Shown piece by piece: positions 1 through 14,203 of a stretch of DNA of 14,352 nucleotides. The stretch lies in assembly GCA_037380845.1 (NCBI GenBank), contig JARRRI010000043.1, forward strand, positions 1 to 14,352, given 5' to 3'. Each line of letters opens with the position of its first letter. The stretch's first letter is position 1. Origin of the DNA: Candidatus Sulfobium sp. (GTDB lineage Bacteria > Nitrospirota > Thermodesulfovibrionia > Thermodesulfovibrionales > UBA6898). The translations under genes and the position numbers were made by a program. A model generated the notes under the pieces. That model made no database searches and had not been told where the DNA came from. It was given only the letters and a program-made list of their open reading frames with translations.

Positions 1-386
1 TTCCTGAAGGCCTCGTCTTCCCTGTTTACTACCACCTGGGTAATAACCGTCACTACATCGACCAAAGGGGCTATCTTCCTAAGGTGGTTGTAGAGCGTCT
101 GCTGGATCATGAAGCCTATTCCACCCTCGGAATCGGCGTCGCAGATATAGAGGGGCATGGGAGGAACGGTGTTCCTCGCCGCCTCGTTTCTTATCATGAT
201 GTTTCCGACAATGGGGCCGTTGCCGTGAGTGATGACGATTCTGCGCCCCTCGCCGATCATGCGGGATATCTCCCGTACACATTCGCCGGTATGGGCGAAC
301 TGTTCTTCTATCGTCCCGCTTTCGCCCCTCCTTATCAGGGCATTCCCGCCGAGCGAAACGATGCACAGAGGAGAAAGTCCGCTCAC
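1..386 (-). CDS. arcC: Carbamate kinase (5' part; truncated by the left window edge)
   Basis: Hand translation from GTG at 386-384 is open to the edge: MSGLSPLCIVSLGGNALIRRGESGTIEEQF...RIVITHGNGPIVGNIMIRNE...PMPLYICDADSEGGIGFMIQQTLYNHL...VVTVITQVVVNREDEAFR. LGGNAL, THGNGPxVG, IGxxIQQ and TQVVV..D.AF are carbamate kinase hallmarks. The start overlaps the upstream stop (GTGA, 386-383). Not in the ORF track. Confidence 0.93.
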   Translation of the reverse strand, partial: MSGLSPLCIVSLGGNALIRRGESGTIEEQFAHTGECVREISRMIGEGRRIVITHGNGPIVGNIMIRNEAARNTVPPMPLYICDADSEGGIGFMIQQTLYNHLRKIAPLVDVVTVITQVVVNREDEAFR

Positions 387-1738
387 CTCTTCAGCGCCTT
401 CCCCGGCGCTCCCTGATCAAGGCTGTCCACAAATCCTTCTATGCACGCCCGGAACTCGTTCCCCTCAACCTCTTCTATGCCGTAGCTCACCCGCACCACT
501 TTCCTGCTGATATGTAGCAGGCTCCCCAGGTCCACCGGCGTGGCGACCAGGACGACGTCGCAGGGGACGCTCTCTATGGTCTTCCTCAGTTCCTCAATCT
601 GCTCCGGTGCGTACCCTGTGGCCGGCAGCAGGTCCCCTATATGGGCATAACGCCGGAAAGTCTCTTTTATCGAACCCACCGCGTAAGGACGCGGATCGAC
701 AACTTCGGCAGCATGGAACTGCCTCGCGGCGAGCAGGCCCGCCCCGTATGACATACCGCCGTGGGTCAAGGTCGGTCCGTCTTCCACCACCAGGACCTTC
801 CTACCCTTTATTCCCTCCGGATCATCGGTCGAAATGCGGGAGGCAGTGCGTACGATGACAGCTTGGGCATTGACCGATCTGACATTCTGTTCGACGATCG
901 CCACACTCTCCCTGTCAGCCGTGTCGACTTTGTTGATAATAGCGACGTCGGCCCTCCTCATGTTCGCCTCTCCGGGATGATAGAGCATTTCGTGGCCGGC
1001 CCTGTGAGGGTCCAGCACGACGGTCTCAAGGTCGGGCCTGACAAACGGCAGGTCGTTATTACCTCCGTCCCAGACAATGATCTCCGCCTCTTTCTCGACG
1101 CTCTTAACTATCTCCTGATAATCGACCCCCGCATAAACAACCGCTCCTTCGGCTATGAGGGGCTCGTATTCCTCCCTCTCCTCTATAGTGCAGTTCTGAC
1201 TGTCCAGATCCCCGGGCTTTTCAAACCTCTGAACCCTCTCCCTGGCGAGATCACAATAAGGCATAGGGTGGCGGATGGCGGCGGGTTTCAGGCCCTTCTC
1301 CCTCAGTATCCTCAGCACGTACCGGGTTACTTCACTCTTGCCGCAGCCAGTCCTCACCGCGCAGACGGAGATCACGGGCAGGGCCGATTCGATCATTGTC
1401 TTCTCGGCACCCAGGAGGACAAAGTCCGCTCCCAGAGAGATGCAGAGAGACGCCTTGTGCATGACATACTCATGCGATACATCGCTGTACGCGAAGACGA
1501 CCTGGTCGATTCCATACTCCGGGATAAGTGCCCCGAGGGTATCCTCGGGATAAATGGGGATGCCCTCCGGATAAAGATGTCCTGCCAGTTCCCGGGGATA
1601 GGTCCTTGTCTCTATGTACGGTATCTGGGCCGCCGTAAAGGCTTTTACATCGTAGGCGTCACTGTCTCTGTAACAGACATTGAAGTTATGGAAATCCCTG
1701 CCGGCCGCCCCCATTATAATCAGCCGCTGTCTCTTCAT
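383..1738 (-). CDS. COG2403 P-loop NTPase (annotated GTPase / cDPG-synthetase-like); probable arginine synthetase, ArcE type (451 aa)
   Basis: N-terminal IIMGAAGRDFHNFN, P-loop AVRTGCGKS, IRHPMPY, CTIEEREEYEP, WDGGNND and VVEDGPTLTHG. The start is placed at ATG 1738 (ATGA overlap with the aminotransferase stop) rather than 1858, because the extra 40 codons lie inside the aminotransferase gene. Adjacent to carbamate kinase. The family call is firm; the arginine synthetase function is inference. Confidence 0.8.
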   Translation of the reverse strand: MKRQRLIIMGAAGRDFHNFNVCYRDSDAYDVKAFTAAQIPYIETRTYPRELAGHLYPEGIPIYPEDTLGALIPEYGIDQVVFAYSDVSHEYVMHKASLCISLGADFVLLGAEKTMIESALPVISVCAVRTGCGKSEVTRYVLRILREKGLKPAAIRHPMPYCDLARERVQRFEKPGDLDSQNCTIEEREEYEPLIAEGAVVYAGVDYQEIVKSVEKEAEIIVWDGGNNDLPFVRPDLETVVLDPHRAGHEMLYHPGEANMRRADVAIINKVDTADRESVAIVEQNVRSVNAQAVIVRTASRISTDDPEGIKGRKVLVVEDGPTLTHGGMSYGAGLLAARQFHAAEVVDPRPYAVGSIKETFRRYAHIGDLLPATGYAPEQIEELRKTIESVPCDVVLVATPVDLGSLLHISRKVVRVSYGIEEVEGNEFRACIEGFVDSLDQGAPGKALKR

Positions 1739-3024
1739 CCGGGGCCCCCGCCCGTGCCGGAAACCGCCTCTTCCAGTATATCCAGTCCTTTTGATATCTC
1801 GTCCTTCGTGACCGGCAGAGGCGGAGCGAGTCTGATAATGTTCTTGTCCACCCCACATTCCAGCAGCACCAGTCCCCGGTCAAGACAGTATTTCAGGATT
1901 TTTTTGAGCCCTTCGGTATCGGGTCCTCCTTCCATGTCCACGAATTCTATGCCGATCATCAGGCCCAAGCCCCTGACGTCGCCGATGCGGCCGTTCCTGT
2001 CCTTCATTTCGCGAAGCCGGCCGAGCGCGGACTCCCCCACAGAGGCGGCATGGTCCAGAAGTCCCTCCCGTTCAATAACTTCTATCGTCGCCAGCGCGCT
2101 CGCGCAGGACACGGGATTGCCGCCGAAAGTAGTGCCGTGCGCCCCCGGCGCCCACTTCTCCATAATCTCCTTTTTTGACGCTATGGCGCTGAGGGGGAGA
2201 CCGGAGGCAATCCCCTTTGCGAGAGTCATGATGTCAGGCACGACGCCGAAGTGCTCGGATGCAAACCATCTGGCCGTCCTCCCCATGCCCGCCTGAACCT
2301 CGTCGAAGACCAGGAGGATGTCGCGCCTGTTGCAGATCTCCCTCAGACTGGCAAGAAACCCCTGCGGCGGAACCACGTAGCCCCCCTCACCCAGCACGGG
2401 CTCTATGATCATGCATGCGACCTCCTCCGGAGGGACAAGGTGTTTGAAGAGCCTCTCGAGGTGTTCGATGCAGTCCATGCCGCAGCTGCCCGCCCTCTGA
2501 CCGAAGAAACACCGAAAGCAATAGGGATAAGGTGAATGATAGATGGATGCGACGAAGGGCTGATAGCGTTTCCGGTATCTAATATTTGACGTGGTAAGAC
2601 TCATCGCGCCGAAGGTCCGCCCGTGAAATCCCCCGGTAAATGCGACCACGCCCTGCTTTCCGGTGTAGAACCGGGCAAGCTTGATCGCCCCTTCCACCGC
2701 TTCAGCGCCCGAGTTCCCGTAGAAAAACATGTTCAGCCCGGGGGGCGTCACTTTTCCGAGTTTTTCCGACAAAGCCACAAGGGGCTCGTAGTGGAAAATA
2801 CATCCGGAATGAATGAGTGCCCCGGCCTGCTTCTTTATGGCTTCCATAACCAGGGGATGGTTGTGGCCGACATTCGTGGTGGCAAGCCCGGAGGTAAAAT
2901 CCATGAACCTCCTGCCGTTTATGTCTTCCACGTAAATCCCGGATGCCTTCTTCACCACGATATCGGTGTGGATTATAAGGGCACTGGTCAGGACCTCTTT
3001 CGCCCGTGAAACAATATCACTCAT
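1735..3024 (-). CDS. Class-III PLP-dependent aminotransferase (GabT / ornithine omega-aminotransferase-like)
   Basis: Motifs FMDFTSG...NVGHNHP, NSGAEAVEGAIK, FHGRT, IIEPVLGEGG, DEVQAGMGRT, TLAKG (PLP lysine) and HGTTFGGNP. 429 aa. Purine-rich AAAAGGGA upstream. Confidence 0.93.
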   Translation of the reverse strand: MSDIVSRAKEVLTSALIIHTDIVVKKASGIYVEDINGRRFMDFTSGLATTNVGHNHPLVMEAIKKQAGALIHSGCIFHYEPLVALSEKLGKVTPPGLNMFFYGNSGAEAVEGAIKLARFYTGKQGVVAFTGGFHGRTFGAMSLTTSNIRYRKRYQPFVASIYHSPYPYCFRCFFGQRAGSCGMDCIEHLERLFKHLVPPEEVACMIIEPVLGEGGYVVPPQGFLASLREICNRRDILLVFDEVQAGMGRTARWFASEHFGVVPDIMTLAKGIASGLPLSAIASKKEIMEKWAPGAHGTTFGGNPVSCASALATIEVIEREGLLDHAASVGESALGRLREMKDRNGRIGDVRGLGLMIGIEFVDMEGGPDTEGLKKILKYCLDRGLVLLECGVDKNIIRLAPPLPVTKDEISKGLDILEEAVSGTGGGPG

Positions 3025-3140
3025 GACATCAGATCCCTTTTCGTTTGCGGACTGAGGTGCCAGGTCCGAGGCAAGAAACGGCCGAACTCAAACCTCCTTC
3101 GTCGTGTGAGGCCTCATCCAACCACGAAAAGCAGGCAGCC

Positions 3141-3236
3141 GAAGAAAGATTTCCGACGCGCTCCGCTTGCGGGAATAACAGATGAAGACCTGGTATCATG
3201 GTCTTTGTAATTCCGGCTCGTCCGGAATCTTTCTTC
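3141..3236. repeat. Inverted dimer of REP-like palindromic units (CGTC-family-like), 96 bp
   Basis: Perfect 11-bp outer inverted repeat GAAGAAAGATT (3141-3151) / AATCTTTCTTC (3226-3236). The right unit is GTAATTCCGGctcgtCCGGAATC. The left unit read on the minus strand is GTTATTCCCGcaagcggagcgcgtCGGAAATC. Inner arms AAGACC (3185-3190) / GGTCTT (3200-3205). Confidence 0.7.
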
Positions 3237-3305
3237 ACCTCTAAGTCCTGCCGAATTGTTACCTCAGCACACCGCACGTTCGCCTTCTCCTGAGTGCATC
3301 ATCTT

Positions 3306-4796
3306 CTACCTGTCTATCTGAGCCTTCTGCAGTCTTCCGCTGAAGTCCCGGTAAATGATCTTCCACTTGGTAAACATGTCCAGGACTCCCCCTTTTCCGC
3401 CCGCCTCCCTGTACCCGAAGCCGCTACTCTTCGTGCCCCCAAAGGGGAGCTGAACCTCGGAGCCGATTGTAGAGGCGTTTATATAGACCATGCCGGTATC
3501 GAGCTCCCTTTCGGCAAAGGCCGACTTATTGACATTACTGGTATAAATCGCCGATACCAGACCGTACCTGCTGTCGTTCACTATGTTTATGGCGTCTTCG
3601 AGTCCCTCCGCCTTTATTACGGACACCACGGGGCCGAATATCTCTTCCCTGGCTATCCTCATCTGCGGCCCGACGTCGGCGAAGACCGTGGGTTCGATGA
3701 AGTATCCCCTGGCGCAGTCCCCCTCCCGGCAGGCCTTTCCGCCGGTCGTGAGCCTGGCCCCCTCGCCCCGGCCTACTTCTATGTATTTGAGCACCTTCTC
3801 CATCTGGGCCTCGTTTATCAACGGTCCGACATCGGTCCTCTCATCCAGACCGTTCCCTAGCCTGAGTTTCTCAGCCTCAGCGGTCAGCATGTCCACAAAC
3901 CTGTCATAGACAGACCGGTGGACGACCATGCGGCTCGACGCTGTACAGCGCTGGCCGGTCGTGCCGAAGCCGCCCCAGACGGCCCCCCCGACGGCGAGTT
4001 CCAGGTCGGCGTCATCCATGATGATGATGGCGTTCTTGCCCCCCGTCTCACAAGACACCTTCACCCCCCGCGAGGCGCAGATCCCCGCGATCTTCTCTCC
4101 CACTGCGGTTGATCCCGTAAAGGACAGCCCGTCCAGGTCAGGATGAGACGCAAGACATTCTCCGGTCGCTTCCCCGCTTCCGTTCACAAGGTTCAGGACT
4201 CCTCCGGGAAGCCCCGACTCGTTGAAAATTTCGACGAGCTTCGACGCGCATACCGGGGTGAAGCTGCTGGGCTTGAAAACCACCGTATTACCGGAGACAA
4301 GGGCCGGCATTATCTTCCATCCGGGTATGGCCAGGGGGAAATTCCAGGGAGTTATAAGAGCGCATACCCCGATGGGGACCCGCAGGGACTTGCAGTCTTT
4401 GTCGGGCAGTTCAGAGGGTATCGTCTCGCCCGACAGCCGTCTCCCTTCGCCCGCCATGTACTGGCCCATGTCGATCGCCTCCTGCACGTCCCCCAGGGCC
4501 TCCTTCAAGACCTTACCCATCTCCCTCGTCATAAGCTCGCCCAACTCCTGTTTTCTTCCGGCGAGCTTCTCCGCAGCCCGGAGCACGATCTCTCCCCGTT
4601 TCGGGGCGGGCGTGAGCCGCCATCCCCTGTAAGCCTTCCTGGCGGCCTGAACCGCCCTGTCCACGTCTTCTTTATCGGATTTACTGACGACGCCGACGAC
4701 CTCGGAGGTGTCGGCGGGATTGATGCTCCGGAAGGTTTCTCCGCTCAGAGAGTCCTGCCATTTCCCGGCGATGAAGTTTCCCACAGTCTCAGGCAT
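3306..4796 (-). CDS. NAD(P)+-dependent aldehyde dehydrogenase (amino-acid semialdehyde / KGSADH-like group)
   Basis: ITPWNFP, VFKPS, FTGSTAVG, catalytic Glu in CETGGKN, catalytic Cys in TGQRCTA, EEIFGPV and LPFGG. Strong RBS AAAGGGAGGT upstream of ATG 4796. Confidence 0.95.
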   Translation of the reverse strand: MPETVGNFIAGKWQDSLSGETFRSINPADTSEVVGVVSKSDKEDVDRAVQAARKAYRGWRLTPAPKRGEIVLRAAEKLAGRKQELGELMTREMGKVLKEALGDVQEAIDMGQYMAGEGRRLSGETIPSELPDKDCKSLRVPIGVCALITPWNFPLAIPGWKIMPALVSGNTVVFKPSSFTPVCASKLVEIFNESGLPGGVLNLVNGSGEATGECLASHPDLDGLSFTGSTAVGEKIAGICASRGVKVSCETGGKNAIIIMDDADLELAVGGAVWGGFGTTGQRCTASSRMVVHRSVYDRFVDMLTAEAEKLRLGNGLDERTDVGPLINEAQMEKVLKYIEVGRGEGARLTTGGKACREGDCARGYFIEPTVFADVGPQMRIAREEIFGPVVSVIKAEGLEDAINIVNDSRYGLVSAIYTSNVNKSAFAERELDTGMVYINASTIGSEVQLPFGGTKSSGFGYREAGGKGGVLDMFTKWKIIYRDFSGRLQKAQIDR

Positions 4797-4868
4797 AAGT
4801 ACCTCCCTTTACGGCGGCCCGAAATGGAAAACGAAAAATCCTCCCGGATAATGCGCTCTCCAGTTCCA

Positions 4869-4897
4869 ATTTTCCCGCACCCGTGGTGGGTTGTCAA
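4869..4897 (-). promoter_or_regulatory. Candidate sigma70 promoter for the ALDH-aminotransferase-COG2403-arcC operon
   Basis: Minus-strand TTGACA at 4897-4892, 17-nt spacer, GAAAAT at 4874-4869. Perfect -35, weak -10. Confidence 0.4.
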
Positions 4898-4932
4898 GAA
4901 ACTGCCGCGGAAGCGGCGGAACCGGAATCTTG

Positions 4933-4962
4933 TTGACAATTCCGGGGCCGTTTCCATATAGT
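4933..4962 (+). promoter_or_regulatory. Candidate sigma70 promoter P1 for the efflux operon
   Basis: TTGACA (4933-4938), N18, TATAGT (4957-4962). Confidence 0.55.
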
Positions 4963-4968
4963 AAAAAT

Positions 4969-4988
4969 GTAAGTGAGCGCTAACATAC
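4969..4988. promoter_or_regulatory. Palindromic operator-like site
   Basis: GTAAGTGAGCGCTAACATAC matches its own reverse complement at 16/20 positions, is centred on AGCGCT and lies just downstream of the P1 -10 box. Confidence 0.55.
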
Positions 4989-5008
4989 GTAGACCCCGGG
5001 TCCCTCCC

Positions 5009-5037
5009 TTGACTAAGACGCAGCGGCTTCACATAAT
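5009..5037 (+). promoter_or_regulatory. Candidate sigma70 promoter P2 for the efflux operon
   Basis: TTGACT (5009-5014), N17, CATAAT (5032-5037); 5/6 and 5/6 consensus matches with optimal spacing. Confidence 0.55.
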
Positions 5038-5098
5038 AAGAATTCACAGCAGAGGGGATGAGAGGGGAGCAGTGAAGCGGACGATAAGGAGAAATCAG

Positions 5099-6247
5099 AT
5101 GTCGAACAGCAGTAGTTTCGGATTCGGGAAAATGTTAAACAGGGTCGCCGTTATTCTCATTCTTTTCGCCGCAACATCTCTTACGGCCTGTACTAAGAAA
5201 AAATCGGATCCGCCGCCCAGACCACCGGCGCCCGTCAACGTTGCCAAGGTGGTCCGGAAGACTGTGCCGGTACAGGTAGAGGCGATAGGGAATGTCGAGG
5301 CATATTCGACCATACAGGTCAAATCGCAGATAGGCGGCCAGCTGATGAAGGTGCATTTCAGGGAGGGCCAGGATGTAAAAAAAGGCGACCTCCTGTTCAC
5401 CATCGACCCCCGCCCCTATGAGGCCCAGGTAAAGCAGGCGCAAGCCGCCCTTGCGAAGGACGCCGCACAGATGGAGTATGCACATGAGGAAGCGCGCCGG
5501 TATGAGGAACTGGTCAGGAAAGGGTATGCCGCCAGAGACCGGTACGATCAGATCCGGGCCAACGCCTCGGCCCTCGATGCGACAGTGAAGGCCGACAAGG
5601 CCCTGCTCGATAATGCAAAGCTCCAGTTGACATACTGCTATATCCATTCTCCGATCACGGGCAGGACAGGGACCCTTCTTTCAAATGAGGGCAACCTCAT
5701 CAAGGCAAATGCGGATACCCCGATGGTAACTATCCAGCAGGTGCGGCCCATATACGTAAATTTCTCCGTGCCCGAGCAGTATCTCGCTGTGATCAAGAAG
5801 TTTATGACCCGAGGTAAACTGAAGGTCCGGGCCATACCAGACCGCAAAGGCGGTGGGGCCGAAAATGGAGAGCTGACCTTCGTGGACAATTCCGTAGACG
5901 CTTCGACCGGAACGATCAGGCTTAAGGGAACTTTCGGCAACAGGGACAAAAGGCTCTGGCCGGGACAGTTCGTCAACGTAAAACTTACGCTAACACAGCA
6001 GCCGGATGCCTTAATCGTTCCGTCGAGCGCCGTCCAGACAGGACAGGACGGAGATTATGTCTTTGTCGTAAAGGAAAACCACACGGTGGGCCAGAACCCG
6101 GTGACGGTGGAAAGGACCTTCGACGATGAGTCGGTCATAGAAAAGGGCCTTGCCCCCGGGGAAACGGTCGTAACCGACGGTCAGCTGCGGCTGGGACCGG
6201 GAGCCAAAGTGGTGATAAAGAACGCTTCCGAAGGCATTAAAGAGTGA
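5099..6247 (+). CDS. RND periplasmic adaptor subunit, MdtA/MuxA-like lipoprotein
   Basis: ATG 5099 with RBS AAGGAG (5086-5091); alternative ATG at 5132. Hydrophobic signal ending in lipobox LTAC. Motifs EGQDVKKGDLLFTIDPRPY, IHSPITGRTG, VDASTGTIRLKG and LWPGQFV. Confidence 0.93.
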   Translation: MSNSSSFGFGKMLNRVAVILILFAATSLTACTKKKSDPPPRPPAPVNVAKVVRKTVPVQVEAIGNVEAYSTIQVKSQIGGQLMKVHFREGQDVKKGDLLFTIDPRPYEAQVKQAQAALAKDAAQMEYAHEEARRYEELVRKGYAARDRYDQIRANASALDATVKADKALLDNAKLQLTYCYIHSPITGRTGTLLSNEGNLIKANADTPMVTIQQVRPIYVNFSVPEQYLAVIKKFMTRGKLKVRAIPDRKGGGAENGELTFVDNSVDASTGTIRLKGTFGNRDKRLWPGQFVNVKLTLTQQPDALIVPSSAVQTGQDGDYVFVVKENHTVGQNPVTVERTFDDESVIEKGLAPGETVVTDGQLRLGPGAKVVIKNASEGIKE

Positions 6248-9200
6248 ACATATCGGAAATCTTCATACGCAGGCCGGTCATGACCACGCTGGTCATGCTG
6301 GCTATCCTCGTCTTCGGTATAGCAGGCTACAGGATGCTGCCGGTGAGCGATCTTCCCAATGTCGATTTCCCGACAGTACTTGTGAACGCATCCCTCCCCG
6401 GGGCAAGTCCCGAAACGATGGCGGCCGCCGTGGCCACCCCCCTGGAGAGGCAGTTTTCCACGATAGCCGGACTCGATTCGATGACATCGACCAACGGACT
6501 GGGCAGCACCCAGATCACTCTTCAGTTCAACCTCGAGCGCAATATCGATGCTGCGGCCCAGGACGTACAGGCGATGATATCCAAGGCGGCCAGTCAGCTG
6601 CCCCAGGACATGCCCAACCCTCCCTCTTACCGGAAGGTCAACCCCGCAGACCAGCCGGTCCTGTATCTGGCGTTCAGTTCTCCTACGCTCCCGCTTTCCA
6701 AGGTCGACGAATACGCCGAAAACTCTATTGCCCAGAGGATATCCATGATAAACGGTGTGGCGCAGGTCCAGGTATACGGCTCACAGAAGTACGCCGTCAG
6801 GGCGCAGATCGACCCCAGGGCGCTTGCCTCTCGGGGACTTGGCATCGACGAAGTGATAGAAGCGCTCCAAAAAAACAATGTAAATCTGCCCACAGGGGTT
6901 CTGGACGGCGCGGACAGGGCATTTACCATTCAGGCAAACGGCCAGCTCATGGACGCCGCCGCATTCCGGCCTCTCATAGTCGCTTACAAAAACGGCAATC
7001 CGGTAAGACTAAACCAGCTGGGACATGTCATCGACAGCGTAGAAAACAACAAGGTCGCAAGCTGGTACAAAAACACGCGGGCCGTGGTGCTCGCAATCCA
7101 GCGTCAGCCGGGGACGAACACGGTGGAAGTGGTGGATTCGATCAAGAGCCTTCTGCCTACTTTCAAGGCACAGATGCCGGCTTCTGTGGACCTGAACATC
7201 CTCTACGACCGTTCGGCATCGATCCGCGAATCTGTCTCGGACGTAAAGTTTACTCTTATGCTGGCCATATTCCTCGTGGTCATGGTGATATTTCTCTTCC
7301 TCCGCAATCTCTCGGCAACGCTCATCCCCAGCATGGCCCTGCCGATGTCCATAGTATTCACCTTTGCGGTAATGTATCTCCTGGGTTACAGTGTGGACAA
7401 CCTTTCTCTCATGGCCCTGATCCTGGCGGTGGGGTTCGTGGTGGACGACGCCATAGTCATGCTCGAAAATATCGTTCGCCACATGGAACACGGAGAACCT
7501 GTGCTTCAGGCGGCCCTTAACGGCTCCAGGGAAGTCGCTTTCACCATACTCTCGATGACCCTGTCCCTGGTTGCGGTTTTCATCCCGGTGCTCTTCATGG
7601 GGGGGATTCTGGGCAGACTTCTCCATGAATTCGCTGTCACTATCGGGGTGGCGATCCTCGTATCCGGCTTTGTTTCCCTGAGCCTCACACCCATGCTCTG
7701 CAGCCGCTTCCTGCGGCCGCCGCAGACCGTAAAGCACGGCAGCATCTACGCGGTCTCCGAAAAGGTCTTCAACGGAATGCTGGCGGCCTACGAAAAGAGT
7801 CTTCAATTCGTGCTCAGACACCGTATCGCCACCCTTTCGGTGACGTTCGCCATCCTTATCGCCACCATCTATTTGTTTACTGTCATGCCCATGGGCTTTC
7901 TCCCCAGCGAAGACACGGGCCAGATATTCGCCTTCACCGAGGCCAAGCAGGGCATTTCTTTCGACTCCATGAAAGAGCATCAGCTCGAAATTGCATCGAT
8001 CGTCGCCGAAGACCCCAACGTCGCCTCATTCATGTCGGCAATAGGTTCGAGCCACATGAGCGCCTCGAGCAATACCGGAAGGATGTTCATACGTCTTAAG
8101 CCCCGCTCCGAAAGACGTCTGAGCGCAGACGAAATCATCCAGGAGTTGAGAAAGAAAGTCTCGAAGGTCGTAGGCATCCAGATGTTCATGCAGAACCTCC
8201 CGCCTATCAGGATCGGCGGCCGGCTGACAAAGAGCCAGTACCAGTTCACCCTGCAGGGACCGGATACCGGGGAGCTTTACAAGAGCGCCACACTGCTGGA
8301 GACCAGATTGAAGACCGTGACCGGACTGCAGGACGTGACGAGCGACCTCCAGATATCAAGCCCGCAGGTCAATGTCGAGATCGACCGCGACAAGGCATCG
8401 GCCCTGGGGGTTACGGCGCAGCAGATAGAAGACGCGCTCGGCGCGGCATACGGGTCGAAGCAGGTGTCGACGATACTCGCTCCGAATGACGAATACCAGG
8501 TGATCGTAGAACTCGAACCGCAATACCAGAAAGACCCGGCGTCGCTCCCCCTGCTTTACGTGAGATCTTCCTCCGGCAGCCTCGTGCCGCTGAACGCCGT
8601 GGCGAGATTAACACAGAGCACGGGCCCCCTTTCGGTTAACCACCAGGGCCAGCTCCCTGCGGTGACGGTCTCTTTCAACCTGAAACCGGGCGTTTCCCTT
8701 GGCGGGGCGGTCGCAGAGGTGGGTAAGGTAGCGCGTTCCACGCTGCCGCCTTCGATAAGCACCAGCTTCCAGGGGACGGCGCAGGCATTCCAGTCATCTA
8801 CGAGCGGCCTGTTCCTGCTGCTCGTCATGGCGCTCCTGGTCATCTATATAGTTCTGGGGATTCTCTATGAGAGTTTCATCCACCCTCTGACCATTCTCTC
8901 CGGGCTTCCCGCAGCGGGCTTCGGAGCCCTCTTGACACTCCTGATATTCCATCAGGACTTGAATATCTACGCCTTCGTCGGGATTATCATGCTCGTGGGC
9001 CTCGTTAAGAAGAACGCCATCATGATGATCGACTTCGCCCTAAACGCCCAGAGAAAAGAGGGCAGGAGCGTGATGGACGCGATTTACGAGGGGTGCGTCG
9101 TCAGGTTTCGTCCGATCATGATGACAACTATGGCGGCGCTGCTGGGCACCCTGCCAATCGCGATAGGTTTCGGCGCAGGCGCCGAGTCCAGGCGGCCGCT

Positions 9201-9354
9201 CGGTCTGGCGGTGGTAGGAGGACTCCTGTTTTCGCAGCTCCTTACACTTTATATCACGCCGGTCGTCTATTACTACATGGAGACATTCCAGGAAAAAACC
9301 GGTGCACGTCTTGGGGCGCGCCGACAGAAGAAGGCCGCAGGCGCGGAGGCTTGA
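6244..9354 (+). CDS. RND efflux permease, HAE1 family (MdtB/MdtC/AcrB-like), 1036 aa
   Basis: FIRRPVMT start, LPGASPETMA and KVNPADQP. Proton-relay motifs GFVVDDAIV, GLVKKNAIMM and RFRPIMMTT are intact. GTGA overlap with the adaptor stop. Confidence 0.96.
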   Translation: MNISEIFIRRPVMTTLVMLAILVFGIAGYRMLPVSDLPNVDFPTVLVNASLPGASPETMAAAVATPLERQFSTIAGLDSMTSTNGLGSTQITLQFNLERNIDAAAQDVQAMISKAASQLPQDMPNPPSYRKVNPADQPVLYLAFSSPTLPLSKVDEYAENSIAQRISMINGVAQVQVYGSQKYAVRAQIDPRALASRGLGIDEVIEALQKNNVNLPTGVLDGADRAFTIQANGQLMDAAAFRPLIVAYKNGNPVRLNQLGHVIDSVENNKVASWYKNTRAVVLAIQRQPGTNTVEVVDSIKSLLPTFKAQMPASVDLNILYDRSASIRESVSDVKFTLMLAIFLVVMVIFLFLRNLSATLIPSMALPMSIVFTFAVMYLLGYSVDNLSLMALILAVGFVVDDAIVMLENIVRHMEHGEPVLQAALNGSREVAFTILSMTLSLVAVFIPVLFMGGILGRLLHEFAVTIGVAILVSGFVSLSLTPMLCSRFLRPPQTVKHGSIYAVSEKVFNGMLAAYEKSLQFVLRHRIATLSVTFAILIATIYLFTVMPMGFLPSEDTGQIFAFTEAKQGISFDSMKEHQLEIASIVAEDPNVASFMSAIGSSHMSASSNTGRMFIRLKPRSERRLSADEIIQELRKKVSKVVGIQMFMQNLPPIRIGGRLTKSQYQFTLQGPDTGELYKSATLLETRLKTVTGLQDVTSDLQISSPQVNVEIDRDKASALGVTAQQIEDALGAAYGSKQVSTILAPNDEYQVIVELEPQYQKDPASLPLLYVRSSSGSLVPLNAVARLTQSTGPLSVNHQGQLPAVTVSFNLKPGVSLGGAVAEVGKVARSTLPPSISTSFQGTAQAFQSSTSGLFLLLVMALLVIYIVLGILYESFIHPLTILSGLPAAGFGALLTLLIFHQDLNIYAFVGIIMLVGLVKKNAIMMIDFALNAQRKEGRSVMDAIYEGCVVRFRPIMMTTMAALLGTLPIAIGFGAGAESRRPLGLAVVGGLLFSQLLTLYITPVVYYYMETFQEKTGARLGARRQKKAAGAEA

Positions 9355-9435
9355 GATTGTGACGCAATGCGGCCCTATGGATTGCTTTTTACATTTTATT
9401 TTTCATACCAGCTTCGGAAGTGAGGAGGATTACTT

Positions 9436-10761
9436 ATGAAAAAAGCATTTATCCTTGCATTACTGGTATTGTTTGCGGTGCCGGCGATCGGCGTGGCGCA
9501 GGAAGATATCATAAAGAAAGGAGAGCAGCTCAACCTTCAGAGGTGCGTTGAAATAGCACTCAGGAAACAGCCCAGCATAGTCGCTGCCAGGAACACGGTC
9601 GATGTAAACCGCAGCAGGGTCGGGCAGGCCCAGTCGAACTATTATCCTCAAATCTCGGCGGACGCCTCATACAAAAGGGTCAAGCCTCTCACAGGGGCGC
9701 AGCGTGCATTGACTACGGGGGTTGACGGCACATCCCCGAGCAGTGCGACCGCCGCCTTCGACGATTACACAGGCAGCCTGTCTGTCAACCAGCTGATCTT
9801 CGATTTCTGGAAGACCAAAAACCAGGTGGACATCCAGAAGCTGAACGTCGGCGCCTCCCGGTCCGACCTCGAAAATACTGCTGAGTCAGTGGTATTCGAC
9901 GTAAAGCAGACATATTACGGAGTGTTGCAGGCGAAGAGAAACAGGGACGTCGCCGAAGAGACCGTAAGGCAGTTCCAGCAGCACCTCGAACAGGCCAAAG
10001 GGTTTTACCAGGTGGGCACGGCCGCCAAGTACGACGTGACGAAGGCGGAAGTAGATCTCAGCAACTCCAAACTGAACCTGATAAAGGCCGATAATGCACT
10101 GAAGATCGCGAGGGTAAACCTCAATAACGCCATGGGGGTGCCGGATGCTCCGGAGTACGGCATCGAGGACAATCTCTCCTACAGTAAATATCAGATAAGC
10201 TTCGATGAGGCGCTCGAAAGGGCCTATCAGAACAGGCCCGACCTGCAGTCGCTCATTTTCCAGAGGAAAGCCACCGAGCAGTCGATTGACCTTGCGAAAA
10301 AGGACTATTATCCGGTATTGACCGGAAGCGCTTCATACACCCGGCAGGGCCAGGACTTTCCTCTCCAGAAGGGATGGAACGCGGGTGTTAATCTGACCTT
10401 TCCGATTTTCAGCGGCTTCCTCACCAAAAACCAGGTGGCTGAACAAAAGGCGAACCTCGAAGTGGTCCGCGCCAACGAAGAGTCTCTGAAGCAGAACATC
10501 CTGCTCGACGTCCAGCAGGGATATCTTAACCTGGCCCAGGCCGCAGAGAGCATAACCACCGCGGAATTGACTGTAAAGCAGGCTACGGAGAACCTGGAGA
10601 TCGCCAACGGCAGATACGCGGCAGGCGTAGGGAACCCCATTGAGGTAACCGATGCCGAAGTATCCCTGACAAATGCTAAAACGTCCTATATACAGGCCCT
10701 CTACGATTACAAGGTGGCCGTTGCCACCATTGAAAAGGCGATGGGTGTCCGGTATCAATGA
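9436..10761 (+). CDS. TolC-family outer-membrane efflux channel
   Basis: Signal peptide MKKAFILALLVLFAVPAIGVA. Two OEP repeats (YYPQISADASY / YYPVLTGSASY; FYQVG..AKYDVTKAE / RYAAGVG..IEVTDAE). RBS GAGGAGG. Confidence 0.93.
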   Translation: MKKAFILALLVLFAVPAIGVAQEDIIKKGEQLNLQRCVEIALRKQPSIVAARNTVDVNRSRVGQAQSNYYPQISADASYKRVKPLTGAQRALTTGVDGTSPSSATAAFDDYTGSLSVNQLIFDFWKTKNQVDIQKLNVGASRSDLENTAESVVFDVKQTYYGVLQAKRNRDVAEETVRQFQQHLEQAKGFYQVGTAAKYDVTKAEVDLSNSKLNLIKADNALKIARVNLNNAMGVPDAPEYGIEDNLSYSKYQISFDEALERAYQNRPDLQSLIFQRKATEQSIDLAKKDYYPVLTGSASYTRQGQDFPLQKGWNAGVNLTFPIFSGFLTKNQVAEQKANLEVVRANEESLKQNILLDVQQGYLNLAQAAESITTAELTVKQATENLEIANGRYAAGVGNPIEVTDAEVSLTNAKTSYIQALYDYKVAVATIEKAMGVRYQ

Positions 10762-11813
10762 CGTTGCAGAGCAAAAGAAGCCTCCACGTAATCCTTTTCT
10801 TCTTCGTTCTCTGCGCGGCGGGGACCCTCCTTTTCATTTATCTTGCCAGGAATAAGGTCTCTCCTGCCGTCCGCGTGACCGGAATAATAGACGGTGTCGA
10901 AGTAAATCTTTCCCCAAAGGTAGCAGGCAGGATCTCATGGACGGCCTGTGACGAAGGTGATGATGTCAAAAAAGGACAGACCGTCATCCGCCTCGACAGC
11001 GAGGATTTTACGGCTTCTGTCAGACAGGCGGAAGCAGGGGTAAGAAAGGCGGCCGCCGACGTGAAGACGGCTGATGCTTCCGTAAGAAGCGCGGAAGCAA
11101 ACATGAAGAGCGCCGCCGCCGATGCTGAGAGCGCCCGGGCAGATATCGAAAGGGCGGCGGCCCAGATGGACGAATCCCGGAAAGAGATGGAACGGGCGAA
11201 GAAGCTCTGTGCGAAGGAATATATATCCAGGGAATCTCTGGACCAGGCCGTGGCCGCCTACGACGTAAATGCGGCATCCCATAAGGCCGCCCAGGAGCAG
11301 TTGAAGGCCGCACTCCAGAGGAAAAACGCCTCAGACGCCGGGCTGAAAGCATCCGAGAGCCGTCTGGATTCATCGAAAGCCGCTCTCCGGGAGGCCGCGG
11401 CCAACCTCGACTATTACAGGGCAAAACTCGGCGACACCGTGATAAAGTCGCCGGTCTCCGGCACGGTCATATTCAAGTCCATGGAGACCGGAGAGACGGT
11501 GTCTCCCGGTGTCACGATCATGACCGTCGTAGACCTGGACAGCCTCTATGCGCGGGTTGACATAGACGAAACAAGGATAAGCGGCATCGTCCTCAACAGT
11601 CCCGCCTTTGTGAGAGTCGACGGAATGTCTGGAAAGGTCTTCAGGGGAAGGGTCATTGAAATCGGCCGCTATGCCGAATTCGCGACACAGAGGGACGTGG
11701 TGCGCGGAAGGGAGGACATCAAGACCTTCAGGGTAAAGGTGAAGATCGACGACACGGAGGGGCTTCTGAAACCCGGGATGACCGTAGAGGTGGAGATACC
11801 GGAGAAGACTTGA
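10758..11813 (+). CDS. HlyD-family periplasmic adaptor (YbhG-like) with a long alpha-helical hairpin
   Basis: N-terminal TM anchor, lipoyl half-motifs LSPKVAGRI...EGDDVKKGQ and IKSPVSGTV...GETVSPG, Ala-rich coiled coil, C-terminal LKPGMTVEV. ATGA overlap with tolC. Confidence 0.92.
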   Translation: MTLQSKRSLHVILFFFVLCAAGTLLFIYLARNKVSPAVRVTGIIDGVEVNLSPKVAGRISWTACDEGDDVKKGQTVIRLDSEDFTASVRQAEAGVRKAAADVKTADASVRSAEANMKSAAADAESARADIERAAAQMDESRKEMERAKKLCAKEYISRESLDQAVAAYDVNAASHKAAQEQLKAALQRKNASDAGLKASESRLDSSKAALREAAANLDYYRAKLGDTVIKSPVSGTVIFKSMETGETVSPGVTIMTVVDLDSLYARVDIDETRISGIVLNSPAFVRVDGMSGKVFRGRVIEIGRYAEFATQRDVVRGREDIKTFRVKVKIDDTEGLLKPGMTVEVEIPEKT

Positions 11814-12826
11814 GGCTCATGCAGAGAGAAAAGGCGATAAGCGTCAACGGGATAACGAAGAGGTTCGGGGAAATCACGGCGGTAGATGATGTAAGCTTCG
11901 ATGTCGATGAAGGTGAGTTCTTCGGGTTCCTGGGTCCCAACGGCGCCGGAAAAACGACCCTGATCAGGATGCTTACCACGCTCCGCAGACCAACTGACGG
12001 CAAGGCATCCGTGGCCTCTTTTGACGTGGCTAGATACCCGGCGGAGGTGAGGCAGCGTATAGGAGTCGTTCCCCAGGCCATGACGAGCGACCTTGATCTT
12101 ACAGGATATGAGAACATGGACCTCTATGGGAGGTTCTACGGCATACGCGGAAAGGAGAGGAGGGAAAGAATACGGTACCTGCTCGACAAGGTCGGGCTTG
12201 CGTCGAGGGCTAAAGACCTTGTAGCAACTTACTCCGGCGGCATGAGGCGGAGACTCGAGATCGCGCGGGTCCTTGTCCACAGGCCCAAACTGCTTTTCCT
12301 CGACGAGCCGACAATAGGCCTGGATCCGCAATCAAGACGCGTGGTATGGGACTTTCTCGAAAAACTCATAGAAGGCGATTCGATGACAATCTTCCTCACC
12401 ACCCATTACATGGAAGAGGCGGAGGCGCTCTGCGACAGGGTGGCCATCATCGATAATGGAAGAATCATAGTCCTGGGAAGTCCGGCTGAGCTGAAGGCGG
12501 AGATACCCGGTAGCGATATTATCTCGATCGCGCTGGAGTCTCTTCCAGAGGAAGTGGTGACGGCAACAGAAAGGCTCCCCTTTGTGCACAAGGTGAAACC
12601 GGAGGACAATTCCGTCAGGGTTTACGTCGATAGTGGGGCAAAGAATCTGCCGGGGCTGATTGACGAGGTGAGAAAAGCCGGTGGCACAATTCAGTCGGCG
12701 ACGATCCATGAGCAGTCGCTCGAAGACGTCTTTATCCATTACACCGGGAAGTCCATCAGGGAAGAAGAGGCTAAAAAAGTCAGTTTCCTGGTCGGAGCGG
12801 GCATTCCGCAGAAACTGGGAAGATGA
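11810..12826 (+). CDS. ABC transporter ATP-binding subunit (DrrA-like, ABC-2 exporter)
   Basis: Walker A GPNGAGKT, signature YSGGM, Walker B LLFLDEPT, H-loop TTH and a C-terminal extension ending SLEDVFIHYTG. The start is TTG 11810 (overlapping the previous stop) or ATG 11819. Confidence 0.95.
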   Translation: MRLMQREKAISVNGITKRFGEITAVDDVSFDVDEGEFFGFLGPNGAGKTTLIRMLTTLRRPTDGKASVASFDVARYPAEVRQRIGVVPQAMTSDLDLTGYENMDLYGRFYGIRGKERRERIRYLLDKVGLASRAKDLVATYSGGMRRRLEIARVLVHRPKLLFLDEPTIGLDPQSRRVVWDFLEKLIEGDSMTIFLTTHYMEEAEALCDRVAIIDNGRIIVLGSPAELKAEIPGSDIISIALESLPEEVVTATERLPFVHKVKPEDNSVRVYVDSGAKNLPGLIDEVRKAGGTIQSATIHEQSLEDVFIHYTGKSIREEEAKKVSFLVGAGIPQKLGR

Positions 12827-12929
12827 CGACTAAAGTAGAACTGAAATGCAGAAGGCGGAAGTAAGAAGCTAAGGGTAAGGTATGCTATCAACAGTTCTCA
12901 GTAGTATTCACCGATACTCGTTTCTTATA

Positions 12930-13005
12930 CGTAATGCCTGAGGTTATAACCGGGCATCCAGGTCTCTTGAAAGTGGATTCCCGCCTAATGACCCCGGGAA
13001 TGACG
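12930..13005. repeat. Inverted dimer of CGTC-type REP-like palindromes
   Basis: Left unit CGTAATGCCTGaggttataacCGGGCATCCA (12930-12960). Right unit on the minus strand CGTCATTCCCGgggtcattaggCGGGAATCCA (13005-12974). 13-nt spacer. Confidence 0.75.
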
Positions 13006-13087
13006 GCCTGGGAGCGCATTTCAGAGCCGATTATTACTTGACCGTTGCTGATGTGGAAAATGAAATTCGGGTCATGAAGAAAATTAT

Positions 13088-14203
13088 ATGATAAGACTTC
13101 TGGCCGTCATAGAGAGAGACCTGAAGAAATTCAGGCGGAACCCGGTGGTGCTCGCTATGAGCATACTGATGCCGATTATATATCTGGTTATCCTCGGGAA
13201 TTCCTTCCAGGGGAAGCTGACCGGCCTGCCAGTGGCTGTCGTCAGCCAGGATTCAGGGCCGTTTGCGAAGCGTCTGGTGGAAAACCTGCGGGCCATTGAG
13301 GCGGGACCGGCAACCTTCACCCTGCTTAAAATGACAGACAGTAAGGCGGCCGTTGAGGGAGTCAGGAAAGGGAGGTACAAGGCGGCACTCATCATCCCGC
13401 CTGAGTTCAGCAGGAGGATGACACTGGAGGGACGGCCGGAGGTCGGACTGTTTCTCGACAATACCGACGGCATCTCGGCCGGGACCATACGCAATCTCGT
13501 AAGCGCCGCAATGACCTCCCTCCATTCTCCTTACGTTCCGATAAGGGATAAGGCCGACGTTGCCCATCTGAGAGACGTCGACCTCTATCCCAAGGTGGAC
13601 TACTACCAGTCGCTTGTGCCGGGGGTGGTGATAATGGCGATCTTCCTCGGAACCCTTACGACCGGGGCCTTCAATCTCGTCATGGACCGTTTTCTGGGAA
13701 TAGATGAAAGCTATCTGCTTACGCCCCTTTCGAAATCTCATATCGTGGCAGGCCTTATCATCAGCGGCCTTTCGATCACCACGGTAATAGCATCTGCTAT
13801 CTTCACAGTAAGTCTTCTCATCACCGGAATATCGCTCGGACAGGCCGTTCAGCAGTGCGCCTCGATTTTTCTCGTTATCGTACTCACGACACTATGCCTC
13901 CTCAGCCTGATGTTCGTGATCCTGGGGAGAATCGGCCACCCGCGTATCGTCGGTATCCTGAGCGGCTTTCTCAATGTCATCCTCTTTTTCCCGAGCGGAG
14001 CGGTTTACCCCGTGGCCAGTTTCCCCAGCTGGCTCAAGACCTTTGCGAAGGTAAACCCCGAAGCATACGCAGTAGAGGCACTGAAAAGCATTCTCTTCAA
14101 GAACGCTCCGATCGTTAATATTTCGGGCGATCTGGCCTTCCTTGCGGTCTTCACCACCGTCATGATGTTCACCGCGATCATTTCCTTCAGGAGAACACTG
14201 TAA
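13088..14203 (+). CDS. ABC-2 type exporter permease (YbhS/YbhR-like)
   Basis: One N-terminal TM, a large extracytoplasmic loop, then five TMs. Motifs YLLTPLSK, FFPSGAVYP, FPSWL and NPEAYAVEAL. 371 aa. Confidence 0.92.
   Translation: MIRLLAVIERDLKKFRRNPVVLAMSILMPIIYLVILGNSFQGKLTGLPVAVVSQDSGPFAKRLVENLRAIEAGPATFTLLKMTDSKAAVEGVRKGRYKAALIIPPEFSRRMTLEGRPEVGLFLDNTDGISAGTIRNLVSAAMTSLHSPYVPIRDKADVAHLRDVDLYPKVDYYQSLVPGVVIMAIFLGTLTTGAFNLVMDRFLGIDESYLLTPLSKSHIVAGLIISGLSITTVIASAIFTVSLLITGISLGQAVQQCASIFLVIVLTTLCLLSLMFVILGRIGHPRIVGILSGFLNVILFFPSGAVYPVASFPSWLKTFAKVNPEAYAVEALKSILFKNAPIVNISGDLAFLAVFTTVMMFTAIISFRRTL

Follow-up and report, generated by a model that had tools for sequence, protein, structure and literature searches.

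Which reaction does a COG2403 protein catalyse in a bacterium, and what links it to the genes around it? The question is raised by the start of contig C43 (JARRRI010000043.1) in a genome of Candidatus Sulfobium sp. The window, which is the whole stretch of DNA that was analysed, consists of the first 14,352 bases of that contig. The genome itself (G000) measures 3.18 Mb in 104 contigs, and is 100% complete by markers. Genes in the window were called from a list of open reading frames, a Pfam scan and an NCBIfam scan. The minus strand carries four co-oriented genes: an aldehyde dehydrogenase (ALDH), a class-III aminotransferase (AT), the COG2403 protein and the N-terminal part of a carbamate kinase (Table 1).

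It is probable, if some way from certain, that these four genes are a catabolic operon which takes arginine to glutamate and conserves energy on the way. The COG2403 protein would be ArcE, the arginine synthetase, and would turn arginine, ADP and phosphate into citrulline, ammonia and ATP. This activity has been shown for an archaeal ortholog. Citrulline would then be phosphorolysed by the sole ornithine carbamoyltransferase (OTC) of the genome, which would release ornithine and carbamoyl phosphate. Carbamate kinase (ArcC), going by the function of its family, would make a second ATP from carbamoyl phosphate. The AT, which is GabT-like and translationally coupled to arcE, would move the delta-amino group of ornithine to 2-oxoglutarate, and the ALDH would oxidise the resulting glutamate-5-semialdehyde (GSA) to glutamate with NAD(P)+. 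Genomic context is what suggests these last two roles. Per arginine, the route would net two ATP by substrate-level phosphorylation as well as NAD(P)H, and the carbon skeleton would be retained as glutamate.

The arginine synthetase pathway is known from Thermococcus kodakarensis, where it comprises ArcE (TK2200), an OTC (TK0871) and carbamate kinase (Michimori, Yokooji and Atomi 2024, PMC11032458). The same text describes how ornithine formed by way of ArcE passes through an ornithine aminotransferase (OrnAT) to GSA, and on to proline. Its Discussion lists bacterial ArcE homologs, and calls their roles unevaluated.

The identity of the COG2403 protein does not follow from family models, since no Pfam or NCBIfam family passes its cut-off. 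A homolog search with the protein returns more than 8000 relatives, which are named 'predicted GTPase' or 'cyclic 2,3-diphosphoglycerate synthase'. Of 61 genomes in the class of an archaeal relative, 59 carry this gene, with identities of up to 59%. An exact look-up of ten archaeal proteins identifies one of these (P0121) as BAD86389.1 of T. kodakarensis KOD1, which is TK2200, and which UniRef names 'Arginine synthetase ArcE'. BLASTP aligns the window protein with TK2200 over 441 amino acids at 58% identity and 74% positives, with 0 gaps. The gene is single copy on both sides: the window genome and the T. kodakarensis genome (G226) give one match each.

The protein carries the motifs MGAAGRDF at residue 9, a P-loop GCGKS at 131-135, WDGGNND at 223 and NKVD at 269. 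The first three of these are invariant in 17 aligned homologs, and a pairwise alignment has them in common with TK2200. The longest open reading frame of the gene begins at 1858. The start is nevertheless placed at 1738, because homologs of 445-451 amino acids align from residues 1-3.

Among all solved structures, a phmmer search of the PDB gives a sole match, to CpgS (9sxb), at E 0.0019 and 20.6 bits. The two proteins share a distant P-loop superfamily (COG2403) and this weak local match over some 110 residues, the best stretch being 112 residues. Set against 58% identity to TK2200, such a marginal and partial match speaks against CpgS as the identity of the window protein. Judged by its sequence, the protein is an ortholog of the characterised ArcE; an earlier note on this DNA had proposed just this grouping, with ArcE rather than CpgS, and the ungapped alignment and reciprocal single copies bear it out. 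ArcE orthologs, TK2200 among them, are labelled 'cyclic 2,3-diphosphoglycerate synthase' in NCBI, as are P0004 and P0034. Because the characterised TK2200 itself bears this label, the label is a propagated annotation error for the ArcE clade.

In which direction does the enzyme run? The earlier note saw no arginine deiminase in the window, and this extends to the whole genome: TIGR01078 has 0 matches in either. The genome does encode argG, argH, carB and argD-argF, so canonical arginine biosynthesis exists. By the reasoning in the Discussion of PMC11032458, ArcE in an organism with argG and argH is an arginine-to-citrulline enzyme. On that logic ArcE works from arginine to citrulline here. The OTC is argF, which lies beside argD on contig C26, and a second carbamoyltransferase match in the genome is aspartate-carbamoyltransferase-like (pyrB-like). 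For an ArcD-type antiporter, the best score in the genome is 35.6 bits against a cut-off of 591; no control genome passed this model either, so the result carries little weight.

The gene arrangement can be read directly from the sequence. The AT and arcE genes overlap by ATGA at 1738-1735, and arcE and arcC by GTGA at 386-383. This confirms the four co-oriented genes and both overlaps that had been described before. The carbamate kinase claimed for the operon holds up in part: the N-terminal part of arcC does overlap the arcE stop, and the gene is incomplete in the window. It is cut because the window begins at the start of contig C43. The piece in the window covers profile positions 4-121 of TIGR00746. 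The C-terminal piece is found on the minus strand at the end of contig C92 (G000:C92:6237-6713), which is the matching strand, where it scores 197.6 bits over profile positions 153-308. Summed, the halves reach 323.6 bits against a cut-off of 358.25, with about 30 residues unassembled.

Directly downstream of arcC on C92 is a gene of the DUF6866/Sfum_1244 family (5050-6114, minus strand; locus L005). None of the 80 + 20 loci compared below contains a counterpart, and the gene is not counted as a component of the system.

The order of the genes was compared with that in 200 other genomes of the phylum. ArcE occurs in 22 of these, and for 20 the locus was retrieved with wide flanks. Nine of the 20 have ALDH-AT-ArcE-ArcC, two have ALDH-AT-ArcE with arcC not next to it, five have ArcE-ArcC only, three have ArcE alone and one is truncated. 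Counted over all 22 other ArcE-positive genomes, the ALDH-AT-ArcE trio is found in 12, of which the twelfth is G085; arcC comes next in 9. Conversely, the 200 genomes hold 12 AT orthologs at 55% identity or more, and every one of them adjoins ArcE; the AT group that comes next, at 47-49% identity, belongs mostly to genomes without ArcE. The 4-nucleotide overlap between AT and arcE recurs in three relatives (L147, L148, L149). A survey of neighbourhoods for ALDH-AT-COG2403-arcC, which the earlier note had suggested, hence finds the order conserved. The sampled relatives belong to families f3, f10, f15 and f18. The arrangement exceeds chance, because it is kept in at least these four other families of the phylum.

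Outside the phylum sample, Ca. Sulfobium mesophilum (L043) has ALDH, AT and ArcE in the same order, at 74%, 73% and 66% identity. In place of arcC, its ArcE is followed by a ComA-family (phosphosulfolactate synthase-like) gene at 11372-12232 on the plus strand. Carbamate kinase was not found in this metagenome-assembled genome, the completeness of which is unknown.

In family f18, the operon has a proline dehydrogenase after arcC (L158, 6031-7053, minus strand; the same gene cluster in L162). This supports the route through GSA, because proline dehydrogenase yields the same semialdehyde.

Two loci of the sample match in fragments. The ALDH of L149 (5403-6883) is hit as two or three segments that lie in different frames, as are both ALDH and AT of L160 (5412-8148). 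The genomes concerned are G073 and G039. Frameshifts, pseudogenes or assembly errors are possible explanations.

The strongest support for the sequence ornithine to GSA to glutamate comes from other phyla, where enzymes of known function occupy the same position. This comparison used the best 80 of 595 confirmed ArcE loci; many of the contigs are short, so the neighbour counts are minimums. ArcC is adjacent to ArcE in at least 22 of these 80, and OTC in at least 10. The gene immediately upstream of ArcE encodes an ornithine aminotransferase (OAT) of TIGR01885, at 558-562 bits against a cut-off of 378, in both L106 (Acidobacteria) and L117 (Thermodesulfobacteriota). ArcE-ArcC is immediately preceded by a GSA dehydrogenase (GSADH) of TIGR01236, at 770-782 bits against 613.6, in L064 (Fidelibacterota), L075 (Nitrospina) and L105 (Neomarinimicrobiota). 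At the GSADH position beside ArcE in L096 (Zixibacteria) there is an ALDH of the window type (54% identity). The earlier proposal that the operon extends the pathway through GSA to glutamate gains support from this, because a curated OAT or GSADH fills the same place beside ArcE, and from the proline dehydrogenase of f18.

Other neighbours of ArcE in these phyla are worth recording. Succinyl-CoA synthetase (sucCD) follows PruA-type GSADH-ArcE-ArcC in L064, L075 and L105, and also occurs in L083, L096 and L103; L083 additionally carries a nucleoside diphosphate kinase. GSADH-ArcE-ArcC-sucCD appears to gather enzymes of substrate-level phosphorylation in one operon. In Aminicenantes-type loci (L052, L062, L111, L121), a conserved protein of about 700 amino acids (an open reading frame of about 717), with no Pfam family, comes after arcE-arcC(-OTC); the OTC stands between ArcE-ArcC and this frame in L052, L062 and L111.

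A different kind of arginine link is seen in 14 Anaerolineae/Chloroflexota-type loci, where ArcE has arginyl-tRNA synthetase (argS; PF00750 + DALR) as its immediate upstream neighbour on the same strand (L068, L069, L074, L078-L080, L082, L100, L102, L109, L114-L116, L118). Neither arcC nor OTC is nearby in any of the 14. L061 has a 15th member of this argS protein cluster, on the opposite side and strand. Perhaps ArcE supplies arginine in these loci.

Table 1 Features of the ArcE locus in the window, minus strand genes listed from the ALDH end.
Feature	Position	Strand	Remarks
ALDH, NAD(P)-dependent; proposed glutamate-5-semialdehyde (amino-acid semialdehyde) dehydrogenase	3306-4796	-	496 amino acids; PF00171 576.8 bits
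ALDH-AT spacer	3025-3305	-	281 nucleotides; inverted pair ATTCCGG-N5-CCGGAAT at 3210-3228
Class-III (GabT-like) pyridoxal phosphate (PLP) aminotransferase; proposed ornithine delta-aminotransferase	1735-3024	-	429 amino acids; PF00202 419.1 bits
ArcE, arginine synthetase (ATP-forming arginine deimination)	383-1738	-	451 amino acids; 58% identity to TK2200
Carbamate kinase arcC, residues 1-128, cut by contig start	3-386	-	TIGR00746 126 bits
Divergent intergenic region, ALDH gene / resistance-nodulation-division (RND) efflux operon	4797-4972	.	sigma-70-like site; CCGGAAT-N10-ATTCCGG at 4922-4945

How far do the AT and ALDH proteins speak for themselves? The AT has the PLP-lysine motif TLAKGIASG, and DEVQAG. 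It passes a sole NCBIfam model, NF005993 (631.5 bits, cut-off 574), which is uninformative, and stays below NF004426 (510.8 against 552). TIGR01885, the RocD-type OAT model, is not in the best 25 of 69 families for this protein, which does not qualify as its equivalog. The solved 7vno chain is presumably an ornithine aminotransferase. A 2018 paper on PH1423 did not assign that protein an activity. Among T. kodakarensis proteins, the AT shares 43% identity with TK2101 and 42% with TK1211, which are an ornithine omega-aminotransferase and a Leu/Met racemase according to PMC9986279. From its genomic context, the AT is proposed to be an ornithine delta-aminotransferase.

The ALDH is covered by PF00171 over profile positions 1-460 of 461. 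It has its catalytic Cys in GQRC (residues 281-284), and an ETGGK segment. Models for GSADH score below their cut-offs (PRK03137 432.6 against 648, TIGR01237 406 against 659.65), and the solved relatives are generic. In relatives, orthologs of 60-76% identity are first in the operon. Among the ALDH orthologs that occur apart from ArcE (60-67% identity), those in five retrieved loci (L169, L171-L173, L176) stand beside a gene of about 367 amino acids, which belongs to the alanine-dehydrogenase family in the two that were scanned (L169, L171). More distant homologs, at 55% identity, adjoin saccharopine dehydrogenase, which fits an amino-acid semialdehyde as the substrate class of the ALDH. From its context, the ALDH is likewise a candidate GSADH.

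Because the best model for the ALDH is GucD, a 2-oxoglutarate-semialdehyde dehydrogenase, it was also considered that ornithine is transaminated twice, and that the ALDH makes 2-oxoglutarate from 2,5-dioxopentanoate. This idea was set aside by reasoning, as it requires a single AT to remove both amino groups, and as GSA is prone to cyclise.

Several observations weigh against the proposed arginine-to-glutamate operon. The ALDH gene is set apart by the 281-nucleotide spacer, so that its coupling is not tight and its co-transcription with AT-arcE-arcC is undecided. The arcC gene is divided between two contigs. GucD leads the ALDH models at 555.7 bits against a cut-off of 770, and all curated models are below cut-off. 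Nine genomes that lack ArcE also carry ALDH orthologs (60-67% identity), and one ArcE-positive genome has such an ortholog at an unlinked site; the ALDH therefore does not serve ArcE exclusively and has a wider role. The best solved relative of the AT is an Ala/Ser racemase (9wqz, 337.7 bits), followed by the P. horikoshii 'GABA-AT' and bacterial GabTs, so that homology does not settle its specificity. A maximum-likelihood tree groups the ArcE-linked ATs in a separate clade (support 95/96), which is unplaced with respect to TK2101, TK1211 and E. coli GabT.

Further points concern the pathway as a whole. OTC is neither in nor near the operon, in the window genome as well as in 20 of 20 phylum loci, and this step depends on the biosynthetic argF. 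The genome already has a PutA-like fusion of proline dehydrogenase and GSADH, of 975 amino acids. Genus g47 (G030, G039 and G085, 81-97% complete) keeps ALDH-AT-ArcE with no carbamate kinase detected (best about 23 bits), which means that the yield of two ATP is not general. Finally, the related genomes of families f3, f10, f15 and f18 are kin, and not independent events.

A wider proposal is believed and doubted in equal measure. It holds that the GabT-like AT clade and the 2-oxoglutarate-semialdehyde-dehydrogenase-like ALDH clade are the ornithine delta-aminotransferase and GSADH of a bacterial 'extended arginine synthetase pathway'. This pathway would have been assembled convergently in several phyla from non-orthologous parts, with RocD or PruA elsewhere, and would be kept even where carbamate kinase is not found. 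Arginine-to-glutamate catabolism in anaerobic sediment bacteria would then have ArcE as its primary energy-conserving entry.

Could the AT and ALDH serve some other omega-amine, with ArcE-ArcC as a plain arginine synthetase pathway that is loosely linked through ornithine? Candidates are GABA (to succinate semialdehyde and succinate), putrescine, or lysine (to 2-aminoadipate). The solved relatives of the AT are mostly GabT or PuuE enzymes and racemases, the GABA aminotransferase model TIGR00700 gives 418.6 bits (cut-off 506.65), and TK2101 is described as accepting lysine too (PMC9986279). The occurrence of the ALDH type without ArcE, and at 55% identity beside saccharopine dehydrogenase, points the same way. 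Such a loose association is hard to square with the 12 of 12 close AT orthologs that adjoin ArcE and the conserved 4-nucleotide overlap, nor does it account for the curated OAT or GSADH at the same position in other phyla, or for the proline dehydrogenase in the f18 operon. Moreover, the genome has a separate ALDH on contig C31 which is like succinate-semialdehyde dehydrogenase. The other omega-amine is thus unlikely, and remains the most serious competitor.

It is also conceivable that the substrate of this ArcE homolog is a guanidino compound other than arginine, for instance agmatine or 4-guanidinobutyrate, and that AT and ALDH process the resulting putrescine or GABA. A GabT-like AT would suit this, and the Discussion of PMC11032458 leaves room for it by calling the roles of bacterial ArcE homologs unevaluated. 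The protein is however 58% identical, ungapped, to an arginine-specific enzyme. The carbamoyltransferases found are argF and the pyrB-like one only, and argF scores 274 against 500 on TIGR04384, the putrescine carbamoyltransferase model. The RocD and PruA partners in other phyla indicate ornithine. A different guanidino substrate therefore looks quite improbable.

Slimmer still is the chance of an anabolic role, in which ArcE would make arginine from citrulline, ammonia and ATP, with ArcC supplying carbamoyl phosphate, as has been proposed for some bacteria without argG and argH. ArcE is reversible, and according to PMC11032458 citrulline feeding lets it sustain arginine synthesis in vivo; the argS gene directly upstream of ArcE in the 14 Anaerolineae-type loci would also be in keeping with this. 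Against it, argG, argH and carB are present in this genome, the ALDH partner is by established enzymology effectively irreversible in the oxidative direction, and the proline dehydrogenase, OAT and GSADH partners are catabolic.

That the AT is an amino-acid racemase, as its archaeal relatives TK1211 and the P. horikoshii Ala/Ser racemase are, feeding in for example D-arginine or D-ornithine, is very doubtful: the Ala/Ser racemase as best solved match, the 42% identity to TK1211 and the loose tree position speak for it, but the Leu/Met racemase model NF045634 gives 370.8 bits against 800, a racemase provides no aldehyde for the co-conserved ALDH, and true OATs stand in for the AT in other phyla.

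With arginine-to-glutamate catabolism as the preferred reading, it can be asked where expression of the operon begins. The regulatory evidence is weak overall. Upstream of the ALDH gene there is a sigma-70-like site, TTGACA-17-GAAAAT, at 4897-4869 on the minus strand. Expression probably starts from this predicted promoter, and a second control point may lie in the spacer before AT-arcE-arcC. The search for a sigma-54 pattern was prompted by sigma-54 activators on the flanks of the operon in relatives (L147/L148, L158/L161). None is found upstream of the ALDH gene, and there are 26 matches against about 48 expected.

The spacer folds to -105.3 kcal/mol (z -2.63 against shuffles), and holds a 21-nucleotide inverted repeat (3141-3161 / 3216-3236). 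No intrinsic terminator-like site is present in it on the minus strand, and Rfam, searched with positions 1-5200 up to an E-value of 1, gives no match. In relatives, the length of the ALDH-AT spacer ranges from none to about 380 nucleotides. Inverted pairs of ATTCCGG occur in both noncoding regions of the operon, out of 11 such pairs genome-wide with a spacer of up to 20 nucleotides. Each could possibly be an operator. A conserved operator was rejected, as nine relatives lack the pairs at the equivalent sites.

The rest of the window, on the plus strand (4973-14203) and divergent from the operon, is an export gene cluster according to Pfam and NCBIfam. It comprises an MdtA/MdtB-like RND pair, a TolC-like channel, an HlyD-type adaptor, a DrrA-like ATP-binding cassette (ABC) ATPase and an ABC-2 permease. 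No link between this cluster and the arginine operon is seen in the window.

Why does the locus matter? The chemistry after ornithine is textbook. Arginine synthetase itself was described in 2024, in an archaeon only, and this locus, with its relatives in the phylum and its analogues in others, gives a concrete picture of its use in bacteria. That picture is of a self-contained arginine-to-glutamate route, which would keep the carbon and give at most two ATP and one NAD(P)H. It gives two unnamed enzyme clades, the AT and the ALDH, a probable function. It also exposes a systematic database error, since ArcE orthologs go by the names 'cyclic 2,3-diphosphoglycerate synthase' and 'GTPase'. No description of a bacterial ALDH-AT-ArcE-ArcC operon was found in the literature searched, which included a 2026 follow-up; Supplementary Figures S2, S10 and S11 of PMC11032458, on bacterial arcE neighbourhoods and distribution, lay outside that search and may already show some of these clusters.

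The closest known system is the pathway of T. kodakarensis. Both have ArcE (orthologs at 58% identity) and ArcC, no arginine deiminase is found in them, and in each OTC is a separate gene (TK0871 there, argF here). Ornithine goes to a GabT-like OrnAT (TK2101) and GSA in the archaeon too. The genes are scattered there, whereas here AT and ALDH share one operon with arcE-arcC. The end product also differs: proline, and thus an anabolic purpose, in T. kodakarensis, against glutamate and a catabolic purpose as proposed here. Lastly, the host here is a bacterium of mesophilic habitat, with full arginine biosynthesis and carbamoyl-phosphate synthetase.

With the classical arginine deiminase pathway (arcABC and ArcD), the operon has in common the OTC and carbamate kinase steps, and the ATP from carbamoyl phosphate. 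Here, arginine deiminase is replaced by the ATP-forming ArcE, and ornithine, which is exported in the classical case, is proposed to be metabolised.

The Roc pathway of Bacillus subtilis uses arginase (RocF), ornithine aminotransferase (RocD) and 1-pyrroline-5-carboxylate (P5C) dehydrogenase (RocA). B. subtilis keeps two P5C dehydrogenases. The likeness lies in the path from ornithine through GSA/P5C to glutamate, by a class-III AT and an ALDH, and in having a second P5C dehydrogenase alongside the proline-utilisation one, which here is the PutA-like gene. The entry differs, as it would be the energy-conserving ArcE, OTC and ArcC here and arginase there. The AT and ALDH also belong to other subfamilies than those of the Roc pathway, going by the absence of TIGR01885 from the best 25 and the GSADH scores below cut-off. 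Taken together, the operon makes sense as a known pathway that two further genes would extend to glutamate, and is not a new kind of system.

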